A DNA stretch of 40,104 bases from an uncultured bacterium (GTDB lineage: Bacteria > Auribacterota > Erginobacteria > Erginobacterales > DAOSXE01), in NCBI GenBank assembly GCA_964538495.1, contig CAZIEA010000003.1:1-40104 (forward strand), read 5' to 3'. Below are positions 3 through 31,202 of this stretch, in pieces; position 1 is the stretch's first letter; each line of letters starts with the position of its first letter. Made by a program: the position numbers and the translations under genes. The notes under the pieces were generated by a model, which worked only from the letters and a program-made list of their open reading frames with translations, did no database searches and was not told the DNA's origin.

Positions 3-1418
3 ATAACCGTGATCGTGGAGGCCGGGCCGGCCGGCCTGGCGGCCGCCCGGGAGTTGTCGCTGGCGGGGCGGCGGGTGCTTGTTCTCGACCGCCGCCGACA
101 CGTCGGCGGCCTGGCGCGCACCGTGCAGCAGGACGGCTGCCGTTTTGACATCGGTCCCCATCGTTTTTTCAGCAAGTCCGAGGAGATCAACCGGCTATGG
201 AGAGAAGAACTGGGGGAAGATTTTATCCGGGTTGAGCGGCTGACGCGGATTTTTTACCGAGGCCGGTTTTTTCATTATCCCCTGAAAGTATTCAGCACCG
301 TGCGCGGCCTCGGGCCCTGGGGTTCCCTGCGGGCCCTTGCCAGTTATTTTATCCGTCCCCGGCGGCCCGGTGTCTCCTACGAAGATTACATCCGCGGGGC
401 GTTCGGCCAGGTTCTCTACGAGACCTTCTTCAAGTCCTACTCCGAAAAGATCTGGGGCATCCCCTGCGGCATGATCTCGCCGGATTTCGCGGTGCAACGA
501 ATCCACGGGCTTTCTTTCTGGTCGGCGGTTAAAAATGCCCTGGTCGCCGAGAAGCGGGGCTTGCCTTCGCGGGTAAAATCCCTGGTCTCTTCTTTTCACT
601 ATCCGCGCCAGGGCAGCGGTTCTTTTTGCGAAAAAATCGCCCGGGGAGTGAGAGAGCGGGGAGGGGATATTCTGACGGGTTGGAAGGTGGAGAGTTGGAA
701 TTTTTCTTCTTCCGGGGGTCGCCTGGAATCGGTGACCGCCGTACACGGGCAGGAAAGAAGAGAGTTCCGCGGCCGGGACTTCATCTCCACCGTGCCGATC
801 AACGATCTGATTTTTTCGTGTTTTCCCCGGGTCCCCGAACCGGTGCTGGAAGCGGCTCGGGCGCTGCGATTTCGCCACCATATCTCCGTCAATCTTTTGG
901 TCAAGGCTCCCAAAATTTTTCCCGACCAGTGGATTTACCTCCACGACCCAGGAATTGCCGCCGCCCGGGTCGCCAATTACCGCAATTTCAGTCCCGCCAT
1001 GAGCGAACGGGATGGAGTCTATCCGATCACTTTGGAGTATTTCTGTTCTCCGGACGACCCCCTGTGGATGGAGAAAGACGAGATGCTGATCAAATTGGGA
1101 ATCGGAGAGCTGGGGGAAAAAATTGCCGGCGACGACTGCGAAGTGGTCGGCGGCTTTGTCATCCGGGAAGCGAACGCCTACCCGGTGTACTTCCTCAACT
1201 ATCAGCCCTTCCTGAAAATCATCCGCGAGTTCTTAGGCGACATCCACAATCTCCAGGTGGCGGGGCGGGCTGGTCTTTACCGCTACAACAACATGGACCA
1301 TTCCCTGCTCACGGGGATTTATGCCGCCCGCAATTTCCTGGGGCAGGAACACGATGTCTGGTCAGTCAACGCCGACGAGGAATATCTGGAGCAGGTACGC
1401 GAGCAGGATAGTTATTGA
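3..1418 (+). CDS. FAD/NAD(P)-binding oxidoreductase (amine-oxidase / protoporphyrinogen-oxidase-like fold), 5' end probably cut by window edge
   Basis: Frame is open from base 3. N-terminal dinucleotide-binding motif ITVIVEAGPAGLAAARELS...VLVLDRRRHVGG (GxGxxG plus acidic end of beta2). 469-aa ORF with GC-rich third positions, stop at 1416-1418. A GTG at 9 would leave too short a beta1, so the true start is likely off-window. Confidence 0.75.
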   Translation: MTVIVEAGPAGLAAARELSLAGRRVLVLDRRRHVGGLARTVQQDGCRFDIGPHRFFSKSEEINRLWREELGEDFIRVERLTRIFYRGRFFHYPLKVFSTVRGLGPWGSLRALASYFIRPRRPGVSYEDYIRGAFGQVLYETFFKSYSEKIWGIPCGMISPDFAVQRIHGLSFWSAVKNALVAEKRGLPSRVKSLVSSFHYPRQGSGSFCEKIARGVRERGGDILTGWKVESWNFSSSGGRLESVTAVHGQERREFRGRDFISTVPINDLIFSCFPRVPEPVLEAARALRFRHHISVNLLVKAPKIFPDQWIYLHDPGIAAARVANYRNFSPAMSERDGVYPITLEYFCSPDDPLWMEKDEMLIKLGIGELGEKIAGDDCEVVGGFVIREANAYPVYFLNYQPFLKIIREFLGDIHNLQVAGRAGLYRYNNMDHSLLTGIYAARNFLGQEHDVWSVNADEEYLEQVREQDSY

Positions 1419-1422
1419 GGCG

Positions 1423-1464
1423 CGGAAATTGTGTTGTCCCCTTGTCGGTTTTCGACAATTTCCG
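1423..1464. other. 10-bp inverted repeat just after the oxidoreductase stop
   Basis: CGGAAATTGT (1423-1432) pairs with ACAATTTCCG (1455-1464). A nested alternative pairing is TTGTCG / CGACAA (1442-1447 / 1453-1458). No T tract follows. Confidence 0.4.
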
Positions 1465-1530
1465 GGCTACAATGTTTCGCAGAATGTGCGCGGACCTAAA
1501 AACGATTACGGTGGGGAATGAGATTCGGGA

Positions 1531-3603
1531 ATGCTTTTCCCGGTCTCCTGTATTTTCCGAAGACGCGCAAATGCCGCTGGTAAGCTGATGAATCCTGTTT
1601 GGGGTGTCTTTGCGGCCGCCTGTTTTTTGGTCGGCGCGCTTGCTTGGTGCCGGGTGCTCAGGCCTGGGAAAACCCCGGCGCAAGCGGCGTTTTTTTTCGC
1701 CTTCCTTACCGCTCAGATCTTAGCGGCGGGCTTTGCCCTCTCCACCGTCAACCGACTGGCTTCGAGTTTTGCCTGGGCGGTTGCCGGCCTGTTCCTGGCC
1801 GCGCCGGCTGTGACGGCGGAGAGGGTCTGGAGGCCGTCTCCGGAACCGTCCGACTCCCGGCGGATGGCGGCATGGAAGAGTTGGTGGCAAGGGTTGCCTC
1901 TTCTGGAGAGAAAGGTTCTGGCCACAGTCCTGGTCACGGTGGCGGCGGTCGGCCTGCTCAACGCGGCGGTCGTTCTCTTCTCGGCGCCGCATACCTGGGA
2001 TAATCTGGCATATCGCCTGGCCCGAATGGCTTACTATCTTCAGCATGGCAACCTGGGATACTTCGACGCCAACTATGTGCAGCAGGTGGCGGTTCAGCGG
2101 AATTGCTCGATCCTGATGTTGTTTGTCCTGGTTGCTTCCGGGCGCAACGAGAACCTGGCCCAGTTCTGGCAGTTCTTCGCTTACTGGACTTCGGCGGCCT
2201 GCGTGTTCGGGATCTCCCGGGAGATCGGCTTGAAGCGTTCCGCCGCCCTTCTGGCCTCGGGAATCTTCGCCCTGCTCACGGTTTGCCTGATGCAGGCTAC
2301 CACCGCCCAGAGCGATATGCTTCTGGCCGCCTGCGCCGGCTGTTCCGTCTATTCGCTGCTGGCCTGGCGGAATCGGCCCCGTGTCGCCTTCCTGTTTGTA
2401 GCCGCGCTCGGGATCGGTTTGGGATTCGGGATCAAGGGGTCTTTTACCCTTTTCATTCCTTCATTTCTACTCATATGGGTTTACGCATTCGGTGGCGGCC
2501 GGCCGGGGTTGCGGCTTCGGGGCATGGTCTTTTTCGGCATATTCGCGCTGTTGGCGGCAGCGGTTTTTGCCCTGCCGTCCGCCTACCTTTCCAACTGGCG
2601 GCTTTTCAATAATCCCATGGGGCCGGAGGAATTCCGCCGGGTGAATTCCTACGAGGGTAAACCGGTTCCCTTCATTCTGGGCGCGGGCGGGAAGCACCTG
2701 ATGCGGCACGGTTTCGATTTCCTCACCCTCGACGGCTTGCCCGCCCTACCCTGGGTGTGGAAAGCGCAAAATGCCTTGCGCTATCCGGCCCGGGCCTTGA
2801 CTAGGGCGACAGGCATCGATCTCGAGAAAGACCTGGCGCACCCCTGGTTTTATTTTCCGCCCCCGCACAGCCACGAAGATTATTCTTCCTGGGGAATCCT
2901 GGGTTGGTCGCTGGTCTGGCCGGCTTTGCTTTGGGCCGTAGTCGGAGTACGACAGCGCCGGGGGCCGGGGCTGCTGGCGCTTAGCGCCCTGGTTTTTATC
3001 GTGGTTCACGCTTTCAGCGGAGTTTATGATTTCGGCGGCCGGGCGAGATATCTTCTGCCCGCGGCCGTGCTGGCGGCGCCGGCGGCGGGCTGGTGGTTTT
3101 ACTTTCGTTCCCGGGCGTTAAAGATCTGGCTGATTGTTTTTGCCGCCCTGGGGTGCCTCTCCGCGGTCACGGCGGTGCTTTTTCGCTACCGCAGCCCGGT
3201 CTGGTTCGATCAGTCCGTTTTTTTCCGAGGGCGGCTGACCCCCGCCCAAGCGGAGGCCTGGCCGTTGCCGGCCCGGATGGATTCAATTTTTCTGAGGGAC
3301 CGGATGAGCCAGGTTTTACGCGACGCGCCGATCTTTGAAGAAGCGATCAGGAACTACGAGCGGGTCGTTCCTCCCGGAGCCCGGGTGGCGGCCGCCCTTA
3401 ACCCCAACTCGGTCGAGTATCTTCTCTTCGGCCCGCGGCTTACCCGCCGGATTTATCCGCTTAATTCGTTTCATCGCGGCCTGCAGCCGATCCCGCCGGA
3501 GGCGGACTATCTTCTCTGGACCGACGACTTCGACGAGATTTTCAATCGTGGGGAGGGAGACATTCACCTGGGCAAGGATTGGTGGCTGCGGAGGTTGCGA
3601 TGA
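1531..3603 (+). CDS. polytopic membrane protein, GT-C-like (PMT/ArnT-type glycosyltransferase-like architecture) with soluble C-terminal domain
   Basis: 690-aa ORF with many hydrophobic helices over roughly the first 520 aa, then a soluble tail of about 150 aa. Loop motif HTWDNLAYRLARMAYYLQHG follows an early TM. Its stop overlaps the next start (ATGA at 3600-3603). Family assignment rests on architecture only. Confidence 0.5.
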   Translation: MLFPVSCIFRRRANAAGKLMNPVWGVFAAACFLVGALAWCRVLRPGKTPAQAAFFFAFLTAQILAAGFALSTVNRLASSFAWAVAGLFLAAPAVTAERVWRPSPEPSDSRRMAAWKSWWQGLPLLERKVLATVLVTVAAVGLLNAAVVLFSAPHTWDNLAYRLARMAYYLQHGNLGYFDANYVQQVAVQRNCSILMLFVLVASGRNENLAQFWQFFAYWTSAACVFGISREIGLKRSAALLASGIFALLTVCLMQATTAQSDMLLAACAGCSVYSLLAWRNRPRVAFLFVAALGIGLGFGIKGSFTLFIPSFLLIWVYAFGGGRPGLRLRGMVFFGIFALLAAAVFALPSAYLSNWRLFNNPMGPEEFRRVNSYEGKPVPFILGAGGKHLMRHGFDFLTLDGLPALPWVWKAQNALRYPARALTRATGIDLEKDLAHPWFYFPPPHSHEDYSSWGILGWSLVWPALLWAVVGVRQRRGPGLLALSALVFIVVHAFSGVYDFGGRARYLLPAAVLAAPAAGWWFYFRSRALKIWLIVFAALGCLSAVTAVLFRYRSPVWFDQSVFFRGRLTPAQAEAWPLPARMDSIFLRDRMSQVLRDAPIFEEAIRNYERVVPPGARVAAALNPNSVEYLLFGPRLTRRIYPLNSFHRGLQPIPPEADYLLWTDDFDEIFNRGEGDIHLGKDWWLRRLR

Positions 3604-4610
3604 GCGAAGAGGCCCCGTTTTTTTCGATCGTAATCCCGGTTCATAATGAGGAGGAAAATGTCGCGGCGGCTCTAAAATCCATCCGCGTTTCCACCTTCGG
3701 CGCTTTTGAAGTGATTGTCGTCGATGACTGCTCCACTGACGGCTCCGTCGAAGCGGCCCGGGCTTTTCCGGTCCGGATCCTGCGCCAGGAGCGGAATTTG
3801 GGCCCGTCGCTGGCCCGCAACCGGGGCGCGGCTGCGGCCCGGGGAAAGTTTATCGTCTTTACCGACGCCGACTGTCTTTTTTCCCCCGATCTTCTGGAGC
3901 AAACGGCGCGTCGCCTTCGAGAAGAACGTTTACAAGTGCTGGGGGGGACTTACCAGAAAATTTCAGTCGACGGCACTTTCGCCGCCGACTTCCAAGCCAT
4001 CATGGATCACTTCTACGAAACCCGAAAGCCCGCCGCCGATTACCTGGCTGCCCACTACCTGGTGATCGAACGGGAACTTTTCGCCCGCACCGGCGGATTC
4101 AGGTGCGACGAATTGATCGGCCGCGCCGCCGCCTGCGAGGACCTGGAGTTAAGCCGCCGGTTGATACAAATGGGATTTTTGCTCCGGGTTTTCCCGGATC
4201 TCGCGGTGGGGCATTATTTCGGTTTCGGCCTCCGCCGTGCCCTGGCCAACGCCTTTCGCAAAAGCCGGCACTGGGTCAAGTATCTTTCCGCCGCCGGGCG
4301 GCTGGCCGGCGATACCGGCGTCGGTTCCCGGGAGTTGAAAACAAGCGTCGCGCTGCTTCTTGTTTTCATGGCCAGCTTGCCGGTCCTGATCTGGAGCCGG
4401 TGGGGAGCGGCCTTGGCCGCCGCGTCCGTGTTGATGATGGCCGGAGTCAACTTGGCTTTGTTGAGTTTCATCAAGCGTGAGCGCGGATTTCCGTTCGCAT
4501 TCAAGTCTTTTGTCTATTACTGCTTTCCCTATGCCTTCTTTACCGGACTGGGCGCGGCCGCCGCCGGGGGCGAAATCGCCCGCGGCCTGTTTAGGAGAGG
4601 CAAGCGATGA
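3600..4610 (+). CDS. family-2 glycosyltransferase (GT-A fold) with C-terminal TM helices; GtrB/CsbB-like polyprenyl-phosphate-sugar synthase candidate
   Basis: FFSIVIPVHNEEENV...EVIVVDDCSTDGS...FTDADC (DxD) is the classic GT2 signature. Two C-terminal hydrophobic helices (VALLLVFMASLPVLIW..., FVYYCFPYAFFTGLGAAAAG). The ATG at 3600 overlaps the upstream stop. The track ORF begins earlier at 3579, but 3600 gives the ATGA coupling. Confidence 0.8.
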   Translation: MSEEAPFFSIVIPVHNEEENVAAALKSIRVSTFGAFEVIVVDDCSTDGSVEAARAFPVRILRQERNLGPSLARNRGAAAARGKFIVFTDADCLFSPDLLEQTARRLREERLQVLGGTYQKISVDGTFAADFQAIMDHFYETRKPAADYLAAHYLVIERELFARTGGFRCDELIGRAAACEDLELSRRLIQMGFLLRVFPDLAVGHYFGFGLRRALANAFRKSRHWVKYLSAAGRLAGDTGVGSRELKTSVALLLVFMASLPVLIWSRWGAALAAASVLMMAGVNLALLSFIKRERGFPFAFKSFVYYCFPYAFFTGLGAAAAGGEIARGLFRRGKR

Positions 4611-5689
4611 TTCGCTACCTGAAATTTTTGCCCCGGGTATTTCTGAAAGGGACGAGCCCGCTTCACCTGACCTACTTCGTTACCGATGTCTGCGATTCCC
4701 GCTGCGCTTACTGCTTTTCCCGCCGCCGGTCCGGGGCGGAAGGGAAGGTATTAAGCGCGGCCGAAGTGGAGAAGGTGGCCCGTTCTCTTTCCTCCCCGCT
4801 GCTCTGGCTGCTCTTGTCCGGGGGCGAGCCTTTTTTGCATCCCGAGATCGAGGATATTTGTGCTGCCTTCTACCGCCATGCCCGGCCCGCCTTTCTCGTG
4901 ATTCCCACCAACTGCCTGCGGCCGGACGCGATTGTCCGCAGCCTGGAGAAAATCGCCGTCTCCTGTCCCCGTTCCACCGTGGTTTTGAAACTCTCGCTCG
5001 ACGGCTGGGGGGAGGATCACGACCGTTTGCGCGGCGTGCCCGGAAATTTCGAAGGCTTTCTGGCCACCGGCGCGGCCGCGGCCCGGGTCCGGCTTCGCCA
5101 CCCCAATCTGGTGCTGGGAGTGAACACGGTGATCTTGCCGCAAAACTTCTCCCGGCTGTCCGAGCTCAAGAGAAAAGTCGTCGGACTGCCCTGGGTGAAT
5201 TACCATAATTTCTCCCTGGCGCGGGGCGCGGGGGTGGATTCCCGCTGGACTGATGTCGACCCGGACGAGTATCGCCGCTTCAGCCTCCGCCTGCGGGAGG
5301 AAGGCCGGCGCGCCGCCCGGGGGCTTTTTAGCGGCGAGAAGTTCAAAGCCGCTCAGGACTTCCGCCAGCGGGAGATAGTTTTCCGCGTTTTGCAGGAGAA
5401 CCGGAGGCAACTGCCCTGTTACGCTGGGCGGCTGAATCTGGTGTTGGGCGAGCGTGGAGACGTGTATCCTTGCGAAATGCTGCCCTGGAAGCTGGGAAAC
5501 GTCAGGGAAAGCGGATACGATCTCAAAGCCATTATCTCCGGGGAGGAAGCCCGAAAATGCCGGCGGGCGATCGCGGATGGGCTGGAAGCCTGCGACCGCT
5601 GCACCAACGAGTGTTACCTGATCACCAACATACTTTTCAACCCGCGGGAACTTTTCCGAGTCTGGCGGTCCGCCCTCGGATTGCCGTGA
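4607..5689 (+). CDS. radical SAM enzyme with C-terminal SPASM-type cysteine cluster
   Basis: CxxxCxxC motif (VCDSRCAYCF) near the N-terminus, followed by GGEPFL and SLDG..EDHDRLRG. C-terminal cluster C-x12-G-x4-C (PCYAGRLNLVLGERGDVYPC) plus CRRAIADGLEACDRCTNEC. SD AGGAGAGG at 4593-4600. ATGA overlap with upstream stop at 4607-4610. Confidence 0.85.
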   Translation: MIRYLKFLPRVFLKGTSPLHLTYFVTDVCDSRCAYCFSRRRSGAEGKVLSAAEVEKVARSLSSPLLWLLLSGGEPFLHPEIEDICAAFYRHARPAFLVIPTNCLRPDAIVRSLEKIAVSCPRSTVVLKLSLDGWGEDHDRLRGVPGNFEGFLATGAAAARVRLRHPNLVLGVNTVILPQNFSRLSELKRKVVGLPWVNYHNFSLARGAGVDSRWTDVDPDEYRRFSLRLREEGRRAARGLFSGEKFKAAQDFRQREIVFRVLQENRRQLPCYAGRLNLVLGERGDVYPCEMLPWKLGNVRESGYDLKAIISGEEARKCRRAIADGLEACDRCTNECYLITNILFNPRELFRVWRSALGLP

Positions 5690-5695
5690 ACCGAG

Positions 5696-7186
5696 ATGGA
5701 CCTGCTATTGATAAATCCTTATCCCGAAGGGGCCAAAGGGATCAACGAGGGCACGATCGAGCCGCCGTTGGGCCTAGCCTACCTGGCGGCGTCGGCCCGC
5801 GCTCGCGGACGGCGGGTGGACCTGATTGACGCCAATGCCTTGAGGGTCGGGGCGGACGACCTTCGGGAGCACATACTCGAAATTCGCCCCGCCGTGGTCG
5901 GGATCTCCACCAACGTGGTCACCCATCCGGCCGGCACGATCCTGGCTGAGAAACTGCGGGAATCCGGATTCCGGGGGGTGATAGTCCTGGGCGGCCCCCT
6001 GCCCTCGGCTATTCCCGAGTACTGCCTCTCTTCCCGGGCGGTGGACGGAATCGCAGCCGGGGAAGGGGAGGAGACTCTCTCCGAGATCCTGGACAATGTC
6101 GTTGCCGGGCGGGAAGAGCCGTTCCGCGGGGTCAGGGGCTGCTTCTGGCGCGACCGCGCGGGTCTGATCGTCCGGGAAGCCCCGCGGCCGCTGATCGCCG
6201 ACCTGGATTCCCTGCCCCTTCCCGCCTGGGACCTCCTGCCTCCCTTCGCTTATTACAAGTCGCGCGCCCGCCGCCGACCCATCGGCGCGGTCATCTGCAG
6301 CCGGGGCTGTCCTTACCAATGCACTTACTGCAACAAGAGCATCTTCGGTAGCCGCTACCGGCGTTACTCCGTCGCGAGGGTGTTGCAGGAAGTGGAATTG
6401 CTGGCCGCCGATTTCGGGATCCGCCAACTGGACATTCTCGACGACAACCTGACGCTGGAGCTGGATTGGGCCAAGGAACTTTTCCGGCGCCTGATCCCCT
6501 TCGGGCTGGCCATCAACCTCCAGAACGGAATCCGGGCCGACCACTGCGACGAGGAACTGCTCGATTTGATGAAGGCGGCGGGGGTTTTCAAGCTTTCGCT
6601 CGGGGTGGAAAGCGGCTGTCCGGAAATGCAGTTGCGGATCAAGAAAAACGTGGATCTCGAAAAGGTCGTGCAAACGTGCCGGTGGGCCCGAAGCCGCGGG
6701 ATCGTGGTTTATGGAAACTTTATCTTGGGCCTGCCGCACGATTCGGCCGAGACGATGAGCCGGACCGTGGAGTTCGCCCTGCGGATGGATCCGGACGCGG
6801 CCACGTTCAACTTTCTTTTGCCCCTGCCGGGGACGGAGGTTTGGACCGAGATCGAGCAAAACGGCAAAATCGATTTTCGGCTCGACGACCCCGAAGCCGC
6901 CGGTTTTTACGGCGCGGGCCTTCGCTACCGGCTTCCGGGGATGGACAACGCGGAGGTATCGTTCTGGTACCGGCGGGCTTACCGGCGGTTTTATCTGCGC
7001 CCGCGAAAAATCCTGGGCCTCTTCCTGCGCTCGCTTCATCCCGGCGAGCTGGGCTGGCTCCTGGAGACCATCCTGGGCGTCCTGGGTCTTTCCATGCCGG
7101 CCGGCTCCCGCTATCGCACGGCCGCTTCCCGCCGGATCGGGCTGAAAAGCGTCTCGCCGGCCGATAAAACCCGGATGGGGAAATGA
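5696..7186 (+). CDS. B12-binding-domain radical SAM enzyme (class B)
   Basis: N-terminal Rossmann-like B12-binding-type region (MDLLLINPYP...LGLAYLAASARARGRRVDLIDAN). CxxxCxxC motif (CSRGCPYQCTYCN) at about aa 200. 496 aa. Only 6 nt separate it from the upstream stop. Confidence 0.85.
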   Translation: MDLLLINPYPEGAKGINEGTIEPPLGLAYLAASARARGRRVDLIDANALRVGADDLREHILEIRPAVVGISTNVVTHPAGTILAEKLRESGFRGVIVLGGPLPSAIPEYCLSSRAVDGIAAGEGEETLSEILDNVVAGREEPFRGVRGCFWRDRAGLIVREAPRPLIADLDSLPLPAWDLLPPFAYYKSRARRRPIGAVICSRGCPYQCTYCNKSIFGSRYRRYSVARVLQEVELLAADFGIRQLDILDDNLTLELDWAKELFRRLIPFGLAINLQNGIRADHCDEELLDLMKAAGVFKLSLGVESGCPEMQLRIKKNVDLEKVVQTCRWARSRGIVVYGNFILGLPHDSAETMSRTVEFALRMDPDAATFNFLLPLPGTEVWTEIEQNGKIDFRLDDPEAAGFYGAGLRYRLPGMDNAEVSFWYRRAYRRFYLRPRKILGLFLRSLHPGELGWLLETILGVLGLSMPAGSRYRTAASRRIGLKSVSPADKTRMGK

Positions 7187-9513
7187 CCGGGGAAAAGCCG
7201 AAAAACTTCGGGTTCAGGAAGCCGCCGGCCCTGGCGGCGTTTTTCATATTCGCCCTGGCGTTTGCGTCCTTTTATTTCAGTTCCTACTTCTCGGCCGGCT
7301 ACCGGGGAATGCTCGGCTACGAGACCAAGGACACGCTCACCCAGTTGCAGGCCTATTTCAACTCCTCTCGGCAGGGGGCCGCGCTTTACTGGGATCCCAT
7401 TTACTTTCAATATAACCCGCGAGTCCCGCAAGCCCCCATCGCTTCCCCGGTGACGCAGTTTTTCGTCGGCCTGGCCCGGCTGGGATTCTTCAACGATTTG
7501 AAGAGTTTCATGCCGCCTTATCTCCTGGTGCTGGCCCTGCTGCAGGTCGGCTGCGGTTTGACGATGTATTGGTTTTTGCGCCGGGAGGGTTTCGGGTTTT
7601 GGCCCGCGGTGACGGGCGGCTTGGTTTACGCCTATAACCACCAGACCTTCGCCTTCGGGATCAGGCACGGCTATGAAAGAATCAGCGCCGTGCTGCTGGC
7701 GCCGTTGTTTATAGGGACGTTTTTTCGCCTCCTGGAAAGCCCTCCGTCCTCCCCCCGCCGGCGCTTTTTCACCGCCGCCACCGGCCTGCTCGTGGGTCTG
7801 GCCCTGATCTGCAACGGGGACATCAAGCCGACGATCTTTTTTTGCGCTTTCCTGGTCCTGGCGGCGGTTTTTTCCCGGCCGTTTTCCTTCAGGAACCTGG
7901 CGGCCCTGGCGGTCGTCTTCATTCTGGCAGGGGGAATATTCGCGGCGCAGGGGCTCCCTACCGTCTATTCGCTGCCCGAACAGGGAAGGGGCGAGGAATC
8001 GGCGGAGCAGGCGATGGATTACTCCCTATCTCCCGCAAAGCTGTTGTTGACCCACTTCTGGACCGGGCTTACCCCCCGCCCGGATTATCCCTGGGAGAAC
8101 ACGGCGGAATTCTCGATGGTTCTGATGCCGCTGGTCGTGCTGGGTTTGTTCAATCTCGGCCGGCAGCGCCGGCGAAACGTCATTCTGGCCGGCTTGATAT
8201 TTTCCTGTCTCTGGATGATGGGGAAATATCTTCCTACCGCGCCGGCCCAGGGGTGGTTGATGCGCCTGCTGGCCGTCCGCCACCCCAACCGGATGGCGAT
8301 CCTGCTTTATTTCTGCTACGGGTTTCTGGCGGCGGCGGGACTGCGGGGACTGATGAAGGAGGGGATCAGCCGCGTCCTGGCCGCCTGCCTGCTGCTGATT
8401 CCCGCCTCCATGCTGGCGCTGCGGCTGGGCGGGGCCGGCGATATTCCCGGGCGTTTCATTGTTTTCTCCTTCCTGTCCTGTTTTCTCCTGATCGGAATTT
8501 CGCGACGCCTTTTTCCGGCCCGCGCGGTCGTTTTGCTCGCACTCTTTTTTATACTGGAAAGAACGACGGTTTTTCAGCCGGCTGAAAAAATCCCCGGAAA
8601 CGACCCTACCGCTTATTACACATTTGACGAGATTTACCGGGCCCAACCCCGGGTCAAGGCGATCCTGGACGATCCGGATCATCGCCGCTGGCGGGCTTTT
8701 TTCGGGAGCAAGGATTACCCCGACCTTTTCTCCCACAATCTTTACCTCAACGCGTACCGGGACGGCATCCGCCCCATCTTCCCGTATTTCTACATCGACG
8801 AAGAATTCCGGCGGGTGCGGAAAATCCAGGAGGTGATTTTTTCCGACTGGTCCCACCCGATGTGGAGTCTGCTCAACGTGAAATATTTCGTGGACCTGGA
8901 AGGCTATTTCGCCTCCTGGGACGAGGAGGACACCAGCCGGGCGGGGTTGGATGCGCTGGTTTCCCTGGACGAACACGTCCGCGTCAATCCCGGAGCGGAA
9001 GACGAACTCTTCCTGCGCTACCGCCGAGCGCGCTCCTCATCGGATGAGCAATTTTTAGAGGGACTTCGGGCGGGGAACCTATCGGTCGAGTCCACAGCGT
9101 ACCTGGACGAGCTCGATCCGGCGTTGATCTTTGTTCCGGATAATGTTGTTGCCGCTGAAGAGGCGAAAATACAAATCGTGAATCGCAAACCCGACGGGAT
9201 CACGGCTCAAGTGTCCCTGTCGCATCCGGGCGTTCTGGTCTTTTCCGAGTTCTGGTTTTTCCCCTGGCGGGTGACGGTCGACGGCTTGCCGCGTTCCTTG
9301 AGGAGGGCTTACCTCGTCCTGCAGGCGGTCGAACTCGAACCGGGAGAGCATCTGGTCAGCTTCTACTTTGACGCCCGCCATCCCCTTTTTCTGGTTCCGG
9401 GGGCGGTTTCGGCGCTTCTGATCCTTTTGTCCTGCCTCTATTGTCTCCGCCAGTACCGGACGATTAAAAACTCCGGCCGGACGAGAATATTCTCCGGGAA
9501 GGGTCAGAACTGA
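7183..9513 (+). CDS. YfhO-family polytopic membrane protein (GT-C glycosyltransferase-like)
   Basis: 776 aa, many TM helices and a terminal TM. C-terminal block GVLVFSEFWFFPWRVTVDGLPRSLRRAYLVLQAVELEPGEHLVSFYF matches the conserved YfhO C-terminus and the two paralogs at 28407-30956 and 31203-33659. ATGA overlap at 7183-7186. Confidence 0.75.
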   Translation: MTGEKPKNFGFRKPPALAAFFIFALAFASFYFSSYFSAGYRGMLGYETKDTLTQLQAYFNSSRQGAALYWDPIYFQYNPRVPQAPIASPVTQFFVGLARLGFFNDLKSFMPPYLLVLALLQVGCGLTMYWFLRREGFGFWPAVTGGLVYAYNHQTFAFGIRHGYERISAVLLAPLFIGTFFRLLESPPSSPRRRFFTAATGLLVGLALICNGDIKPTIFFCAFLVLAAVFSRPFSFRNLAALAVVFILAGGIFAAQGLPTVYSLPEQGRGEESAEQAMDYSLSPAKLLLTHFWTGLTPRPDYPWENTAEFSMVLMPLVVLGLFNLGRQRRRNVILAGLIFSCLWMMGKYLPTAPAQGWLMRLLAVRHPNRMAILLYFCYGFLAAAGLRGLMKEGISRVLAACLLLIPASMLALRLGGAGDIPGRFIVFSFLSCFLLIGISRRLFPARAVVLLALFFILERTTVFQPAEKIPGNDPTAYYTFDEIYRAQPRVKAILDDPDHRRWRAFFGSKDYPDLFSHNLYLNAYRDGIRPIFPYFYIDEEFRRVRKIQEVIFSDWSHPMWSLLNVKYFVDLEGYFASWDEEDTSRAGLDALVSLDEHVRVNPGAEDELFLRYRRARSSSDEQFLEGLRAGNLSVESTAYLDELDPALIFVPDNVVAAEEAKIQIVNRKPDGITAQVSLSHPGVLVFSEFWFFPWRVTVDGLPRSLRRAYLVLQAVELEPGEHLVSFYFDARHPLFLVPGAVSALLILLSCLYCLRQYRTIKNSGRTRIFSGKGQN

Positions 9514-10934: not shown

Positions 10935-10964
10935 GGCGTCAATATAGCGCAAGAGTTCCCAGCC

Positions 10965-13097: not shown

Positions 13098-13208
13098 AAT
13101 GATCATCAGCCGGCCGCGGGATGGGCGATCTTTTCAGCGAAAGTCCGTACCGTCGGGTCGGGCGCCGTATCTCGATGTAAAATCGGAGAACAGGGTATAA
13201 TTGAAATC

Positions 13209-14633
13209 GTGAAAATCGCTTTTCTGCAGAAATACCCCTTCCCGTATTTCGGGATCATGTCCTTGAGCGCCGGATTGCCGGAGCGTTATCAACGCCAAGT
13301 TTTCATCGGCGATCTGGAGAAAAACCCGGTCGCGGAGGTGGAGGCCTGGCGGCCGGACGTTCTGGCGGTCCCGCTGATGGCGCTGGAATACCACTGGTTT
13401 CTGGAGACCGCCGCCGCCATCAAAAGACGGCTGCCGGCGCTGAAGGTCGTTGTCGGCTACATTCACGCTTCTTCCTGCCCGGAAATAGTCTCGCAACCGG
13501 CGATTGACGCCGTCGGCCTGGGCGAGGGGGACTACTCTTTCCCCCGCTACATCGGGAATCTGGAGGCGGGAAGGGGGGATGAGCCGATCCCCGGCTTCCT
13601 GATCAAGACCCCCTCCGGCGTGGTCTCCTCTCCCGAGCCCAACCTGGTCCCGGACCTGGACGCCCTCCCCGAAGAAGACCGGGCCCTTTACTATGACAAG
13701 TATCCCTCCCTGGGGGCCGAGAAGCTCAAGCACTTCATGGCTTCCCGGGGCTGCCCTTTCTCCTGCAACTTCTGCTGCCACCAGGTTTACCGCCGGATCT
13801 ACTCCGGCCACGGGCCTTACGTGCGGCGGAAATCCCCGTCGCGGACGGTCAGGGAGATTCTCTCGGTCCGGGAGCGCTGGGGGCTGCAAAGCGTCTGCTT
13901 TCTCGACGATGTCTTCGTGATGGACGCGCCCTGGCTGCGGGAATTTGCCGCTCTTTACCGGGAAAAGGTGGGGCTGCCTTACTTCTGCGCCGTGACCCCG
14001 CCGCATATGACCGAGGAGATTGCCCGGCTTCTGGCCGAATCCGGCTGCCACACCGTCAACTTCGGGGTGGAGACCGCCGACCAGAAGAAGCGCTTCGAGA
14101 TCCTGAACAAGAAGGTGACCGACGCGCAGATGTTCGAGTGCGCCCGGCTGGTGAAAAAGCACGGAATGAAGCTCCAGACCACCGTCCTCTTCGGCCTCCC
14201 GGGCGAGACGGTGGAGGAGGCCTTCGAGAACATAGCCTTCAACATCAGGCTGGGGGCGGATTACATGGGCTCCAACGTCCTTTTGCCCTTTCCCAACACG
14301 GGGATCGAGAAGCTCGCCCTGGAATCGGGCGTGCTGGAGCCGGGGTACCTGGAGAGAGAGGATTACCTGGGGATCCACCTGGGGAGCGTCTTCAAGTTCA
14401 AGGACATTGAGGTGATCGAGCGGGTGCAGAAGATCTCGCAACTGGCCCTCAGGTTCCCCTTTCTCATCCCCTTTTTCCGGAAACTGGTCCGGGTCCGGAG
14501 CCGGAAACTGTTTTTTGTCTTCTACGTGTTCTCCTCGATGTGGCGCTACAAGTCGGAGAAGCCCATTTCCTGGCCCGAGGTGTTCAGGGTATTCTGGCGG
14601 GCCCGGAAAAATTACCTGCGCTATGTCTCCTGA
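13209..14633 (+). CDS. B12-binding-domain radical SAM enzyme (class B), second copy
   Basis: N-terminal B12-binding-type region (MKIAFLQKYPFP...). CxxxCxxC motif (ASRGCPFSCNFCCH). 474 aa. The antisense 435-aa ORF (13134-14441) is a GC shadow. Confidence 0.85.
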   Translation: MKIAFLQKYPFPYFGIMSLSAGLPERYQRQVFIGDLEKNPVAEVEAWRPDVLAVPLMALEYHWFLETAAAIKRRLPALKVVVGYIHASSCPEIVSQPAIDAVGLGEGDYSFPRYIGNLEAGRGDEPIPGFLIKTPSGVVSSPEPNLVPDLDALPEEDRALYYDKYPSLGAEKLKHFMASRGCPFSCNFCCHQVYRRIYSGHGPYVRRKSPSRTVREILSVRERWGLQSVCFLDDVFVMDAPWLREFAALYREKVGLPYFCAVTPPHMTEEIARLLAESGCHTVNFGVETADQKKRFEILNKKVTDAQMFECARLVKKHGMKLQTTVLFGLPGETVEEAFENIAFNIRLGADYMGSNVLLPFPNTGIEKLALESGVLEPGYLEREDYLGIHLGSVFKFKDIEVIERVQKISQLALRFPFLIPFFRKLVRVRSRKLFFVFYVFSSMWRYKSEKPISWPEVFRVFWRARKNYLRYVS

Positions 14634-16653: not shown

Positions 16654-17352
16654 ATGCAGCAGCACGGACAGGAAGACCCCTGGTATTCGCCCTCGGACCT
16701 GGAGGCGGCCCTGGAGGAATACCGGCGGCGGCAGGAGAAGGTCTGCCGGCCCTACGCCGACGAGCTCCTGGTGGTGGACGGGCATTCCACCGACGACACC
16801 CGCGAGATCGCCGAATCCCTGGGTTGCCGGGTGGTCCTGGACGCCGGGAAGGGCAAGGGCTGTGGGATCCGGCAGGCTATCGCCGAGGTGACGGGCGACA
16901 TTGTGGTCTTCATTGACGCCGACTACTCCCACCGGCCCGCCGACATCCCGCGGCTGGTGGTCCCCATCCTGCGGGGCGAGGCCGAGCACGTGGTCGGTTC
17001 CCGGCCCCGGGGCGGCTCCGACGAGCTGCACGGGGACCTGGAAAAGTTCGCGCGGATGATCGGCAGCGACATCATCACCCTGGGGATCAACTACCGCTTC
17101 GGGGTGAGATTGAGCGAATCCCAGAACGGTTTCCGGGCCCTCCGGACCGAGGTCGCCCGCCAGCTCGATCTCAAGGAGAACATCACCACCATCGAGCAGG
17201 AGATGACGATCAAGACCCTGGCCCGGGGCTACCGGATCGTCGAGGTGCCCACCCACGAGTATGCCCGGCGCTTCGGGGAATCCAAGATCAGGCTCCCGCG
17301 GGTCTTTTTCCGCTATCTCTTCAGCTGGCTGAAGTACCTGGCCTTTCCCTGA
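16654..17352 (+). CDS. short family-2 glycosyltransferase (DPM1/GtrB-like catalytic domain) with atypical N-terminus
   Basis: LLVVDGHSTDDTREIA...GKGKGCGIRQAI...IVVFIDADYSHRPADIPRLV...VVGSR...NGFRAL. Strong SD AAGGAGAG sits 5-6 nt before the ATG. The usual first strand and motif (xVVIPxxNE) is replaced by EDPWYSPSDLEA. Confidence 0.7.
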   Translation: MQQHGQEDPWYSPSDLEAALEEYRRRQEKVCRPYADELLVVDGHSTDDTREIAESLGCRVVLDAGKGKGCGIRQAIAEVTGDIVVFIDADYSHRPADIPRLVVPILRGEAEHVVGSRPRGGSDELHGDLEKFARMIGSDIITLGINYRFGVRLSESQNGFRALRTEVARQLDLKENITTIEQEMTIKTLARGYRIVEVPTHEYARRFGESKIRLPRVFFRYLFSWLKYLAFP

Positions 17353-17363
17353 GGGGCGGGGCG

Positions 17364-18431
17364 ATGAAGCCGCCGCCCTTTTGCAACCTGGCCCGCCGGG
17401 CGATCGGGGCCCGCTTCGGGACTCCTTCCGCCCCTTTCAAGCTGACCTGGGCGGTGACCTGGCGCTGCAACAGCCGCTGCGCTTCCTGCCGGATCTGGCA
17501 GCGTTCGCCGGGTCCGGAGCTGCCGGTCTCGGATTTCGAGGAAGTTTTTCGAAAAACCCCCTCCCTGGCCTGGATTGACTTGACCGGGGGAGAGCCGACC
17601 CTGCGCGAGGATCTCGCCGAAATCGGCCGGGCGGCGGTTTCCCTCCTGCCCGGGCTCGACCTCCTGCACTTTCCCACCAACGGGCTCCTGCCCGCGCGGC
17701 TGGCGTCGGCGGTGCAGGACATTCTCCGGGCCCGCCCCCGCAAACTCGTGGTCACGGTGAGTCTGGACGGCCCGGAAGCGGTCCACGACCGGCTCCGGGG
17801 CGGGGAGGGTTTTTTCGCCCGTTCGCTCGAGTCCCTGCGCCGGCTCAAAGCTTTGGAATCCCGGCATTTCCGGGTTTTCCCCGGGATGACGCTCTCGGCG
17901 GAGAATTTTCACTTGGTGGGGGAGACTGCCCGGATGCTGGAGAGGGAACTGGAGGGATTCGCCCCGGCCGATCTTCACGTTAACATCGGCGAGATCTCCG
18001 AGCATTTTTACGGGAACGCCGGCTTCGACCTTTCCTTCCGCCCGGTCGCCCTGGAGGAAGTCCGGCGCCACTCCGCCCGGGGGGGCTTCGCCCGGCGCCT
18101 GAGCCCGGCCGGGCTCCTGGAGCGGGCCTATCTCCGGCTGGCCGAAAAATACCTGGCATTGGGGAAGACCCCGATCCCCTGCCGCTCCGGTTCGGTCTCC
18201 TGCTTCATTGATCCCGCCGGGGAGATCTACCCCTGCGCCGTGGAGCCGGAGCGATTGGGAAATATCCGCGAGTACGGATACGACTTGAGGAAAGCCTGGA
18301 AGTCGGAAAAGTTCGCCAGGGCCCGGGCGAGGATTTCCCGCGGCGACTGCCCCCAGTGCTGGACCCCCTGCGAGGCTTACCAGACCTTGCTCTCCGATTT
18401 CCCCGTTCTGCTCTCCCGGGGCCTCTTCTGA
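17364..18431 (+). CDS. radical SAM enzyme with SPASM-type cluster, paralog of 4607-5689
   Basis: CxxxCxxC motif (WRCNSRCASCRIW), then GGEPTL and SLDGPEAVHDRLRG. C-terminal PCRSGSVSCFIDPAGEIYPC...GDCPQCWTPCE. Same length class (355 vs 360 aa) and collinear motifs with 4607-5689. Confidence 0.85.
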   Translation: MKPPPFCNLARRAIGARFGTPSAPFKLTWAVTWRCNSRCASCRIWQRSPGPELPVSDFEEVFRKTPSLAWIDLTGGEPTLREDLAEIGRAAVSLLPGLDLLHFPTNGLLPARLASAVQDILRARPRKLVVTVSLDGPEAVHDRLRGGEGFFARSLESLRRLKALESRHFRVFPGMTLSAENFHLVGETARMLERELEGFAPADLHVNIGEISEHFYGNAGFDLSFRPVALEEVRRHSARGGFARRLSPAGLLERAYLRLAEKYLALGKTPIPCRSGSVSCFIDPAGEIYPCAVEPERLGNIREYGYDLRKAWKSEKFARARARISRGDCPQCWTPCEAYQTLLSDFPVLLSRGLF

Positions 18432-18455
18432 ATCATTCATATGTAGGCCGTGTAA

Positions 18456-18566
18456 AAATTCGAAATTCGAATGACGAAACTCGAATGAAATTCGAAGTCC
18501 GAATGAAGAAATTCGAAACCACTGAGAAGAGTATGTTCCGAGTTTCTGATTTCGAGTTTCGAATTT
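18456..18566. repeat. array of TTCGAA palindromes with 7/14-nt spacing, plus an 11-bp inverted repeat
   Basis: Perfect TTCGAA at 18459, 18466, 18491, 18512 and 18558. One-mismatch variants at 18480, 18498 and 18551. AAATTCGAAAC (18509-18519) is the reverse complement of GTTTCGAATTT (18556-18566). Confidence 0.8.
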
Positions 18567-18573
18567 ATTGGGT

Positions 18574-18639
18574 CTCCTGACTCCTGACTCCTGTTTCCTG
18601 GGTTTTGCCGGATTACGGATCACTGATTACTGATTACGG
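18574..18639 (+). repeat. mosaic-element modules F (CTCCTGA heptads) and E' (GATTACG/GATCACT heptads) upstream of 18675 start
   Basis: CTCCTGA CTCCTGA CTCCTGT TTCCTGG (18574-18601), then gttttgcc, then GGATTACGGATCACTGATTACTGATTACGG (18610-18639), then TTTT and ccagaacc. Same order and orientation as 35903-36000. Confidence 0.8.
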
Positions 18640-18674
18640 TTTTCCAGAACCATTCGTACGGGTCGGGATAGATT

Positions 18675-30956: not shown

Positions 30957-31105
30957 TGCCGGTTGCTGGGTCGTAGCGCAGGGCGTCAGCCCTGATTAAA
31001 AATCTTACCACGGATTCAGCCGCCGGTCGCCGCCGGTTTTGCTGGCCCTTCACAAACGGATTAGCCAAAATAACCTTGTCCGCGGATTTCCCGGATTCGC
31101 TTTTT

Positions 31106-31188
31106 GTGGACGATATGGACGATGTGGACTGAGTGGACCGGAGAAGCCCTGAGGCGCTCGCGTCCTGAACCCTGAATCCTGAACCCTG
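31106..31188 (+). repeat. 9-nt (GTGGACGAT-type) and 7-nt (CCTGAAC) tandem words in the divergent YfhO/YfhO spacer
   Basis: GTGGACGAT ATGGACGAT GTGGACTGA GTGGACCGG (31106-31141). CCTGAAC CCTGAAT CCTGAAC CCTGC (31164-31188), ending 14 nt before the ATG at 31203. Confidence 0.8.
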
Positions 31189-31202
31189 CTATTTCGACTT
31201 CG

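Follow-up and report, generated by a model that had tools for sequence, protein, structure and literature searches.

Our main finding is that the gene for a membrane-anchored GT2 glycosyltransferase and the gene for a radical SAM (rSAM) enzyme with a SPASM domain form a conserved unit, which is often accompanied by a GT-C glycosyltransferase of the PMT_2 type and by a pair consisting of a flavoprotein and a B12-binding rSAM enzyme. The window analysed here is a stretch of 40,104 nucleotides from an uncultured bacterium of the PVC group, in which this unit forms the core of a compact operon (Table 1). Judged by its gene content, the surrounding DNA is a large locus for the export and decoration of an envelope polysaccharide. 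We propose that the SPASM enzyme docks to GT2 and tailors the sugar that GT2 transfers to a membrane-held acceptor, a proposal that we hold to be about evenly balanced between right and wrong.

Table 1. Features of the cassette and of related genes in the window, with the evidence used to assign them.
Feature	Position	Strand	Basis and remarks
UDP-galactopyranose-mutase-like FAD protein	9..1418	+	NCBIfam, structure alignments; 5' end cut by window edge
Remnant of a deleted B12 rSAM gene (last 27 codons and TAA)	1500..1583	+	blastx
PMT_2-like polytopic GT-C	1588..3603	+	Pfam (borderline), hydropathy, homologue annotation
Membrane-anchored GT2, minimal cellulose-synthase-like fold (predicted)	3600..4610	+	Pfam, AF2, Foldseek, motifs; ATGA start overlap
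rSAM enzyme with SPASM/twitch-type C-terminal Fe-S domain	4607..5689	+	Pfam, Cys conservation, AF2; coupled to GT2
B12-binding rSAM enzyme	5696..7186	+	Pfam, motif; starts 6 nt after the SPASM gene
YfhO-family GT-C membrane protein	7183..9513	+	Pfam, hydropathy; closes the unit; ATGA overlap with the B12 gene
Second, divergent B12-binding rSAM enzyme	13209..14633	+	Pfam; same locus
Second triad: soluble GT2 (16654-17352), SPASM rSAM paralogue (17364-18431), polytopic protein (18675-20216)	16654..20216	+	

The preliminary description of this DNA had read five genes on one strand as a compact operon, and this reading is upheld. The open reading frames on the forward strand are at 1531-3603, 3579/3600-4610, 4607-5689, 5696-7186 and 7183-9513, so that the unit spans 1531/1588 to 9513, and the five domain assignments (GT-C-like, GT2, SPASM rSAM, B12 rSAM and YfhO) all hold in Pfam, the first of them as a weak PMT_2 GT-C. 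The ATGA overlaps described at 3600-3603, 4607-4610 and 7183-7186 are all present in the junction sequences. The first junction reads GCGATGA and has GGAGG 7-11 nt on its 5' side, the second also reads GCGATGA and has AGGAGAGG upstream, and the third reads AAATGA. The SPASM gene ends with TGA at 5687-5689, followed by ACCGAG and then by the ATG of the B12 rSAM gene at 5696, which gives the 6-nt spacer (5690-5695) noted earlier. Four-base overlaps of this kind are frequent in bacterial operons and are a sign of co-translation, but by themselves are unremarkable.

The start of the first gene needs correction, being more likely the ATG at 1588 than position 1531, since the equivalent methionine starts the orthologues. 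No promoter-like site was seen on the forward strand within 1419-9513, and the start of the unit is probably the flavoprotein gene, which is directly upstream, outside the coordinates considered previously, and is a conserved member of the cassette. The 3' limit of the operon is at 9513, where it overlaps by 10 nt with a convergent MBOAT gene (9504-10952, reverse strand).

Conservation was examined in 80 species-level GTDB genomes that contain a homologue of the SPASM enzyme, including a subset of 36 in which each flank extends for 8 kb or more (full-flank loci). The SPASM gene is directly preceded by the GT2 gene, in the same orientation, in 76/80 loci and in all 36 of the full-flank loci. 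Start and stop overlap in 36/80, among them 21 loci with an overlap of 4 nt and 10 with one of 1 nt; in a further 35 loci the two genes are 1-60 nt apart. Other partners are less constant, namely a PMT_2-type GT-C (39/80), a B12 rSAM enzyme (44/80) and a UGM-like flavoprotein (26/80). In the full-flank subset a GT-C gene lies beside the pair in 21 loci, and 11 have GT2 and the SPASM gene alone, with no GT-C, B12 or flavoprotein gene detected. The pair is found in the PVC group, Nitrospirota, Thermoleophilia, Alpha-, Beta- and Gammaproteobacteria, Desulfobulbaceae and Rokubacteria, and in the archaea Hydrothermarchaeota/Pyrohabitans; one carrier, Desulfurivibrio sp. D14AmB, is in culture. In sulfur-metabolising lineages the pair sits among genes for a YeeE-like transporter, TusA and rhodanese.

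The gene order of the window does recur in other genomes, and two relatives (L012 and L013) retain the order flavoprotein, PMT_2, GT2, SPASM, B12, YfhO, with insertions. It is however only GT2 and the SPASM enzyme that make up the conserved core. YfhO, which had been described as an outer bracket of the unit, has orthologues near the cassette (53-68% identity) only in three PVC-group relatives, L012, L013 and L014, where extra genes intervene between it and the B12 gene. A literature search found no published precedent for the gene order.

In other lineages the pair also occurs as a single polypeptide, in either order. Among the best 150 representatives of the SPASM homologues, 14 are longer than 600 aa. 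All six of the fusions tested that have a C-terminal rSAM domain are GT2-rSAM proteins; the others comprise one rSAM-GT2 protein, one fusion with a GT4-like domain and one with WecG/TagA. The fused GT2 halves can be aligned with the GT2 of the window through the membrane region, and the fusions were found on many independent contigs.

The surrounding locus encodes Wza/Wzc-like export proteins, a pair of MBOAT and GDSL acylation proteins and two further YfhO proteins. Four GT-C proteins are encoded in the window in total, and the GT2 of the cassette is its only membrane-anchored GT2. Further downstream there is a second triad (Table 1), whose polytopic protein has no match in Pfam. The two SPASM paralogues of the window are 30% identical over 343 residues, and the second GT2 and second SPASM enzyme are 73% and 44% identical, respectively, to the products of genes on the 3' side of the cassette in L012.

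The GT2 protein matches Glycos_transf_2 in Pfam with 123 bits, and is also matched by Glyco_tranf_2_3 and Glyco_transf_21. Its AF2 model (pLDDT 94.9) has helices spanning residues 244-335, and hydropathy predicts two strong C-terminal transmembrane (TM) helices, at 246-264 and 270-288. The conserved motifs are DDxSxD, DxD (D89xD91, invariant), E180-D181 (also invariant), H205 and FRKSxxW225. The best match in Foldseek is the membrane mannosyltransferase PcManGT (6yv7, E 2.7e-15), and BcsA is matched with a TMq of 0.66, while the best 50 folds include neither GtrB nor DPMS nor ArnC. In a profile search of the PDB, the structures of DPMS, ArnC and GtrB align only with the N-terminal, nucleotide-binding half of the protein (residues ~5-123), whereas the alignments with chondroitin synthase and PcManGT extend through E180-D181. 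An invariant catalytic-base ED combined with a QxxRW-like FRKSxxW helix is typical of GT2 enzymes that glycosylate hydroxyls rather than phosphates. In the alignment with chondroitin synthase, the ED of the present protein coincides with the region of the catalytic base, and this Asp is the acceptor-activating base in inverting GT-A enzymes (PMC12595478). By predicted fold and by motifs, GT2 is a minimal cellulose-synthase-like enzyme and, given this fold, the ED motif and the FRKSxxW helix, it is more likely to glycosylate a hydroxyl of a membrane-held acceptor. Its earlier assignment to the GtrB/CsbB type is thus borne out by the DxD-containing GT-A domain and the C-terminal TM anchor, but not by curated-profile membership or nearest fold.

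The first of the two GT-C proteins of the operon is borderline in Pfam (PMT_2 23.7 bits, cut-off 26.1; PMT 22.7 bits, cut-off 22.7), with about 12 hydrophobic segments by hydropathy; precomputed annotations assign PF13231/PF02366 to homologues that are 34-68% identical, and homologues at 36-38% identity also exist without the cassette. It has no sequence match in the PDB, profile search included. The YfhO protein matches its Pfam family with 39.5 bits (cut-off 28.5) over residues 102-461, has about 12 hydrophobic segments and a C-terminal anchor by hydropathy, and has no solved homologue by sequence.

An alternative function for the operon, that of the preliminary description, would resemble the one of ArnC/ArnT or CsbB/YfhO. 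GT2 would make a polyprenyl-phosphate monosaccharide, which the rSAM enzymes would tailor at the cytoplasmic face and which, after flipping, the GT-C enzymes would transfer to an envelope polymer. The known GT-C enzymes of the PMT_2 and YfhO types take polyprenyl-monophosphate sugars as donors. The recurrence of GT-C genes beside the pair is consistent with this alternative, as are the translational coupling of the PMT_2 gene to GT2 both in the window and in locus L003, the GtrB-like layout of GT2 (a GT-A domain and two C-terminal TM helices), and the lack in the window of any other membrane-anchored GT2 that could make the donor for four GT-C proteins. Against it stand not only the fold matches, alignments and hydroxyl-acceptor motifs described above, but also the scores of GT2 with the curated models for ArnC (PRK10714; 22.9 bits, cut-off 529), PpgS (28 bits, cut-off 370) and Dol-P-hexose transferase (26 bits, cut-off 375). 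Moreover, the rSAM domain has GT4-like and GT26 fusion partners as well, and enzymes of these kinds make no polyprenyl-phosphate sugars. There is no place for a GtrA-like flippase gene, given that no unassigned small membrane ORF is left in the window, and the 80 loci likewise show no GtrA-sized cluster that recurs, although a flippase gene at a distance is conceivable. We therefore regard synthesis of a polyprenyl-phosphate sugar as possible but unlikely.

The B12 enzyme of the operon matches both of its expected Pfam families (B12-binding, PF02310, 65.5 bits, cut-off 32.1; Radical_SAM, PF04055, 78 bits, cut-off 29.5) and contains the CX3CX2C motif, as CPYQCTYC at residue 205. Its scores with curated families are far below the cut-offs: BchE 168 bits (481), HpnJ 159 (578), ApyD 136 (750), AprD4 92 (500), and likewise HpnR; the cut-offs of the P- and C-methyltransferase families are not reached either. 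The nearest solved structure is AprD4 (82 bits). Its orthologues in L012 and L013 are 76-78% identical, and a rough NJ tree places those of the PVC clade apart from the B12 enzymes of other phyla. The second B12 enzyme of the locus shares 26% identity with the first; its orthologue in L014 is 65% identical.

HpnJ, which ranks second among the curated families matched by the B12 enzyme, raises the alternative of glycolipid head-group remodelling, in which GT2 would glycosylate a membrane lipid and the rSAM enzymes would convert the sugar head group, the GT-C proteins being either unrelated or adding further sugars. Two of the Pfam families that match GT2, Glyco_transf_21 and Glyco_tranf_2_3, include lipid glycosyltransferases. 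The best curated match of GT2 is a membrane GT2, MftF (105 bits, cut-off 280), and the 11 full-flank loci that carry the pair without GT-C are compatible with a lipid product. Sugar ring contraction driven by rSAM enzymes on lipid head groups is documented for HpnJ and Cds (PMC13459092). The low scores with HpnJ and HpnR, however, argue against such a role. So does the setting in a polysaccharide locus, with no genes for the synthesis of hopanoids, carotenoids or other lipids in the window, and so does the occurrence of the cassette in both archaea and bacteria, which differ in their membrane lipids. The fusion with WecG/TagA points instead to the assembly of a polyprenyl-diphosphate-linked glycan. 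Glycolipid remodelling is consequently rather improbable.

The SPASM enzyme matches Radical_SAM with 48 bits and SPASM with 33.7 bits (cut-off 21.5) in Pfam. In 26 sequences, C29/C33/C36 (CX3CX2C) and the SAM-binding G72-G73-E74 are invariant, as are five C-terminal cysteines, C271, C289, C329, C332 and C336, in the arrangement CX12GX4C...CX2CX3C. A canonical SPASM domain has seven cysteines; the five that are invariant here would suffice for one full auxiliary cluster, and any second one would be incompletely ligated. The AF2 model (pLDDT 91) has as its nearest folds SkfB, SuiB, CteB, anSME, BlsE and DesII, at 15-20% identity. The best match in NCBIfam is TIGR04053 (68 bits, cut-off 395). AhbD (52 bits, cut-off 500), MftC (33.5 bits, cut-off 265) and the PqqE, sactipeptide and ranthipeptide models are all far under their cut-offs, and the anSME model is absent from the best 25 of 37 curated-family matches. 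A profile search gave 2074 cluster representatives at E ≤ 1e-30, a number that does not imply family membership for all of them. For both rSAM enzymes, the curated families with a known unrelated function all score below their cut-offs, a result that supports the preliminary description, and neither enzyme is covered by a searchable paper, a curated family or a solved structure, or has a close characterised relative. On this sequence evidence, the SPASM enzyme belongs to a family not yet characterised.

It is very improbable that the SPASM enzyme is a maturase of RiPPs or other peptides, an anaerobic sulfatase-maturating enzyme or a cofactor-biosynthesis enzyme that is next to GT2 incidentally: peptide maturases and anSME are indeed among its nearest folds, sulfatase-family genes occur in the window and adjoin the flavoprotein gene in relatives, and GT2 weakly matches the S-glycosyltransferase SunS, but the operon leaves no space for a precursor peptide gene, both sulfatase-family proteins of the window lack the C/S-x-P-x-R maturation site, the curated maturase and cofactor models score far too low, and an adjacency to glycosyltransferases that is near-universal and repeatedly becomes a fusion is not incidental.

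In the mechanism that we prefer, GT2 would move a sugar from a nucleotide sugar to a hydroxyl of an acceptor held in the membrane. At the cytoplasmic face this acceptor would most likely be an intermediate of a glycan linked to polyprenyl diphosphate. The SPASM enzyme, produced in step with GT2 and probably docked to it, would abstract a hydrogen atom from this sugar, immediately after its transfer or, alternatively, on the donor immediately beforehand, with the result that the sugar is epimerised, dehydrated, oxidised or rearranged. The B12 enzyme could make a second change, by C-methylation or rearrangement, and the PMT_2-like and YfhO proteins might then attach the tailored unit to an envelope polymer, or extend it there, at the outer face of the membrane. 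Against this mechanism weigh the 11 full-flank loci that have GT2 and the SPASM gene alone, the PMT_2 homologues that exist without the cassette, the separate grouping of the B12 enzymes of the PVC clade, and the donor requirement of known GT-C enzymes, which favours the polyprenyl-phosphate alternative. More speculatively, and with clearly less confidence, the pair may be a widespread and so far unrecognised unit, sometimes in one polypeptide, for radical chemistry on a sugar bound to a lipid carrier, with GT-C enzymes delivering the product. In the sulfur-metabolising lineages the product may be a sulfur-containing sugar, a suggestion that comes from the gene neighbourhood of the pair there. 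To our knowledge, the sugar-acting rSAM enzymes characterised so far all use soluble sugars, nucleotide- or aglycone-linked, and one acting on a lipid-linked glycan would therefore lack precedent.

Comparison with known systems shows partial similarities. GtrA/GtrB/GtrC, CsbB/GtcA/YfhO and ArnC/ArnT likewise combine a membrane GT2 with a neighbouring GT-C of the YfhO or PMT_2/ArnT-like type for decoration of envelope polymers, but the GT2 here is of another lineage by profile and fold, the window has no GtrA-type flippase, and one or two rSAM enzymes are built in, which is the case in none of those systems. In HpnI-HpnK-HpnJ (hopanoid cyclitol ether) and in the glycosyltransferase with Cds (calditol), a membrane GT2-type enzyme is similarly followed by an rSAM enzyme that remodels the sugar. 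HpnJ is a B12-domain rSAM enzyme, whereas the conserved partner here is of the SPASM type; the context of lipid-core biosynthesis is missing, and GT-C proteins and a UGM-like flavoprotein accompany the pair. The twitch/SPASM enzymes BlsE, DesII, BtrN and AbmM and the B12-domain dehydratase AprD4 are of the same fold class and act on sugar rings by hydrogen-atom abstraction. The SPASM enzyme has BlsE and DesII among its best structural matches, and for the B12 enzyme no solved structure matches better than AprD4; identity is however only 15-20%, their substrates are soluble nucleotide- or aglycone-linked sugars of antibiotic pathways, and all of them lack a membrane glycosyltransferase as partner or fused domain.

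PcManGT, from Pyrobaculum calidifontis, is the best full-length structural match of GT2. It shares with GT2 and with the cellulose-synthase core a GT-A domain, a base of the ED type, a small number of TM helices and interface helices of which one carries a Trp, but is only 19% identical and has no rSAM partner. The mycofactocin proteins MftC and MftF are likewise a SPASM rSAM enzyme and a membrane GT2; both scores are below the cut-offs, no peptide or chaperone genes of the MftA/MftB type are present, and the gene context here is that of a polysaccharide, not a redox cofactor.

As far as we know, sugar tailoring by rSAM enzymes comes almost exclusively from antibiotic pathways, with soluble intermediates, while envelope glycosylation by GT2 and GT-C enzymes is thought to employ ordinary sugars. 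The pairing of GT2 with an rSAM enzyme points to an undescribed chemical tailoring of envelope sugars. If the more speculative reading is true, this would be the first rSAM enzyme on a lipid-linked glycan intermediate. A conserved, repeatedly fused glycosyltransferase-rSAM unit, ranging from archaea to proteobacteria, would amount to a new family of enzymes, and one would then expect unusual envelope sugars in many anaerobes, such as C-methylated, deoxy, epimerised, carbocyclic or thio-sugars, for which Desulfurivibrio sp. D14AmB and the natural fusions are tractable test systems. For the window alone the result is more modest, namely a well-supported operon within a polysaccharide locus.

The flavoprotein at the probable start of the unit matches NCBIfam NF005548 with 493 bits (cut-off 389), and its residues 2-443 align over the full length with structures of eukaryote-type UGM (AfUGM 15-475). 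Given the low bit score of this alignment (45), it is described as UGM-like rather than as a proven UGM. Conserved in it are the GPH sequence of the His loop and, towards the C-terminus, GRxGxxRY..NxDHS (here GRAGLYRY..NMDHS), and orthologues precede the cassette in L012-L014 (66-76% identity). The ancestral role of this protein may have been to supply a furanose donor, together with a B12 partner of its own. In the present genome its GxGxxG motif is not intact, having Glu in place of the first Gly (VEAGPAG, compared to VGAGPAG in orthologues), which could be a genuine change or an assembly error. In the remnant downstream of it, 15 of 27 residues are identical by blastx to residues 447-473 of the 473-residue product of L012 5498-6916, and the remnant ends 4 nt on the 5' side of the ATG at 1588. 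Its intact counterpart is found between the flavoprotein and PMT_2 genes in L012 and L013, and the sub-module of flavoprotein and B12 enzyme seems to be decaying in this genome.

The SPASM radical SAM (rSAM) enzyme has more than 1200 word-indexed homologues, and a profile search with it gave 2074 cluster representatives at E≤1e-30. Its loci were compared in 80 species-level genomes (L012 to L091) from PVC, Nitrospirota, Thermoleophilia, Alpha-, Beta- and Gammaproteobacteria, Desulfobulbaceae, Rokubacteria and two archaeal groups. A GT2 gene lies on the same strand immediately upstream of the SPASM gene in 76 of the 80 loci; in the other four, a contig ends or a gene is broken. The two genes overlap by 4 nt in 21 cases and by 1 nt in 10, and are 1-60 nt apart in a further 35. 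Where at least 8 kb is available on both sides (36 loci), the GT2 gene is found in 36/36, a B12 rSAM gene in 21/36, a PMT_2-type GT-C gene in 21/36, and the flavoprotein gene in 11/36. The flavoprotein and B12 genes are mostly adjacent and overlapping. Of the gene order noted in the preliminary description, the GT2-SPASM pairing is thus widely kept in other genomes, but a YfhO gene is close to the cassette (the pair with its frequent partners) only in three PVC relatives. The PMT_2 protein was considered as a cassette-specific family and rejected, because homologues of 36-38% identity occur in ordinary polysaccharide or unrelated contexts.

The two proteins also occur as single polypeptides. 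Fourteen of the best 150 representatives are longer than 600 aa, and all six long representatives with a C-terminal rSAM that were tested against Pfam have the arrangement GT2-rSAM/SPASM. Pfam gave one example each of rSAM-GT2, of rSAM with a GT4-like domain, and of rSAM with WecG/TagA (GT26). The N-terminal halves of the fusions align with the window GT2 through the membrane region, while the C-terminal halves are 29-34% identical to the window SPASM enzyme. Fusions were found repeatedly, on many independent contigs. They are strong evidence that transferase and rSAM function together, as a single unit, on the cytoplasmic side of the membrane.

The AlphaFold2 model of the GT2 is confident (pLDDT 94.9). 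Its best full-length fold match is PcManGT, a minimal cellulose-synthase-like mannosyltransferase, and the highest TM-score is with BcsA. Residues invariant in the family are DDxSxD, DxD, E180-D181, H205, and FRKSxxW on the helix after the catalytic domain. When the PDB was searched with a profile, the ED pair fell on the part of chondroitin synthase that holds the catalytic base, while matches to DPMS, ArnC and GtrB end at about residue 123. With curated models of polyprenyl-phosphate transferases, the scores are 23-28 bits. The GT2 is therefore not classed as a GtrB/CsbB-type enzyme, as had been proposed from the sequence alone. GT-C enzymes normally require polyprenyl-monophosphate sugar donors, and the window contains no other anchored GT2; both points favor an ArnC/ArnT-like pathway, in which the GT2 would make a lipid-linked sugar for the rSAM enzymes to tailor. 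Given the profile and fold results, we consider that pathway less likely than the preferred reading given below, yet the leading alternative to it. The catalytic base and the Trp helix, together with general knowledge of GT2 enzymes and a published study (PMC12595478), suggest instead an acceptor that bears sugar and offers a hydroxyl for the transfer.

Both CX3CX2C and GGE are present in the SPASM enzyme, as are five cysteines in its C-terminal part that are invariant (model pLDDT 91). It is about equally similar to SkfB, SuiB, CteB, anSME, BlsE and DesII, at 15-20% identity, so its fold does not by itself give the reaction. BchE, HpnJ and AprD4 come closest to the B12 enzyme, at scores well under their cut-offs; the chemistry of this enzyme could be methylation, rearrangement or dehydration. 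A glycolipid head-group pathway resembling HpnI/HpnJ or Cds is a possible but improbable alternative. A role in peptide or sulfatase maturation, or a cofactor role, is very improbable, given the curated family scores (the SPASM enzyme reached no NCBIfam cut-off) and the lack of a C/S-x-P-x-R formylglycine site in both sulfatase-family proteins of the window, which read TTPAH and QTHES. An anSME function was rejected on the latter ground, as no formylglycine maturase is needed, and a RiPP maturase because no curated maturase family was reached and there is no room for a precursor gene.

The reading that we prefer, and to which we give an even chance, is that the GT2-rSAM unit both attaches a sugar to a glycan intermediate held at the membrane and tailors that sugar by radical chemistry. 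A further modification would come from the B12 enzyme, and both GT-C proteins would work outside the membrane. Neither the PMT_2-like nor the YfhO protein has a sequence match in the PDB, even with a profile. The components are of known kinds (GT2, GT-C and sugar-type rSAM enzymes), while the conserved combination and the fusion appear to be undescribed: in the literature, whose coverage was incomplete, we came across no account of the pair, the fusions, the cassette, PRK07208 or the flavoprotein/B12 pair.

The five reading frames of the operon are present as originally described, with ATGA overlaps confirmed from the junction sequences at 3600-3603, 4607-4610 and 7183-7186, and 6 nt separating the remaining stop codon (TGA, 5687-5689) from the next start (ATG, 5696). 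Such overlaps are frequent in operons, being a sign of coupling and nothing out of the ordinary. The second and third starts each have a Shine-Dalgarno-like motif in front of them (GGAGG and AGGAGAGG, respectively), no promoter-like site was found within the unit, and the last 10 nt of the unit are shared with the MBOAT gene, which is convergent. A look for transcript data turned up no RNA run. The GT2, Radical_SAM plus SPASM, B12-binding plus Radical_SAM, and YfhO domains are all above Pfam gathering scores; the first protein is polytopic and only borderline PMT_2/PMT, with homologues that carry PF13231.

The first gene had been given a start at 1531, which is probably wrong. Its orthologues begin at a Met matching the ATG at 1588, and a remnant of a B12 rSAM gene lies just upstream, encoding in another frame the last 27 residues and stop (15/27 identical). 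The 1531 codon falls within this remnant region. In the closest relatives, L012 and L013, the gene is intact and is flanked by those for the flavoprotein and PMT_2, and it is concluded that this B12 gene has been deleted in the present lineage. The flavoprotein can be aligned from end to end with UDP-galactopyranose mutases of the eukaryote type, and it retains their His loop and C-terminal motif, suggesting a pyranose-to-furanose step. Its codon at window 18-20 is GAG (Glu); in three orthologues the residue at this place is the Gly that opens the GxGxxG motif for FAD binding. The change could reflect inactivation or an assembly error. Together with loss of the B12 partner, this indicates that the flavoprotein sub-module may be decaying here.

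In L012 and L013 the order is flavoprotein, (B12), PMT_2, GT2, SPASM, B12, YfhO, the last of these being set apart by one to three additional genes. Thermoleophilia (L010 and about 12 further loci, e.g., L019, L025, L031) have B12 rSAM, GT2, SPASM, PMT_2, followed on the 3' side by two or three further B12 rSAM genes, a corrinoid protein and a URO-D/MtaA-like methyltransferase. The window B12 enzyme was considered as a possible orthologue of the flavoprotein-paired B12 enzymes of other phyla, but in a rough neighbor-joining tree the PVC copies form their own clade. Genes for a YeeE-like sulfur transporter, TusA, a periplasmic rhodanese and Usp surround the cassette outside the PVC clade (loci L006, L008 and L092, and 15-21 of L012 to L091), Hydrothermarchaeota/Pyrohabitans archaea included. 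In those lineages the product may contain sulfur. A phmmer search with the recurrent sulfur-gene clusters (YeeE-like, TusA, rhodanese, Usp) gave no match in the window, and a sulfur link was dropped for the window itself.

The window is a polysaccharide locus, whose features are listed in the table.

Features of the window, with coordinates where available
Feature	Position	Strand	Remarks
UGM-like flavoprotein	9-1418		5' end cut by window edge; belongs to same conserved set as operon
B12 rSAM remnant	1500-1583		ends 4 nt before 1588
PMT_2-like GT-C	1588-3603	+	
GT2	3600-4610	+	
SPASM rSAM	4607-5689	+	
B12 rSAM	5696-7186	+	
YfhO	7183-9513	+	
MBOAT and GDSL-lipase/TPR protein	9504-13097		divergent neighbors; MBOAT DltB/AlgI-like, 163 bits to DltB model, below cut-off
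Ankyrin-repeat protein	14646-15305		free-standing
Second triad	16654-20216		soluble GT2; SPASM rSAM paralogue (30% identical); polytopic protein, no Pfam match
Polytopic protein, no Pfam match	24020-25714	-	33% identical to that of second triad
Two Thr-type sulfatase-superfamily proteins	21067-23067; 25896-27797	-; -	one with TPR repeats
Second B12 rSAM; GHMP kinase			
Two F5/8-type-C proteins; two more YfhO proteins			
Beta-barrel porin; Wza-like protein; Wzc-like protein			
Low-GC segment	20001-23000		GC 0.46-0.48, against about 0.60 elsewhere
Long antisense ORFs	31050-32546; 5774-7039; 13134-14441	-; -; -	last two are examples of others; antisense to annotated genes, in 60% GC sequence; no family matches where tested

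An MBOAT beside a GDSL-type protein is typical of polysaccharide O-acylation systems. The two "sulfatases" are probably not sulfatases but transferases or hydrolases with a Thr nucleophile, within the alkaline-phosphatase superfamily. Elsewhere, a homologue of the PMT_2-like protein at 66% identity, P0381 (894 aa), carries fused ankyrin repeats, suggesting that the PMT_2-like and ankyrin proteins interact. The low-GC segment, which spans a TPR gene and the sulfatase-TPR gene, may be recently acquired, and the long antisense ORFs are probably not genes. The closest genomes carry the label 'PVC group bacterium', and the metagenomes holding the sequence come from lagoon, wastewater, sludge and bioreactor samples.
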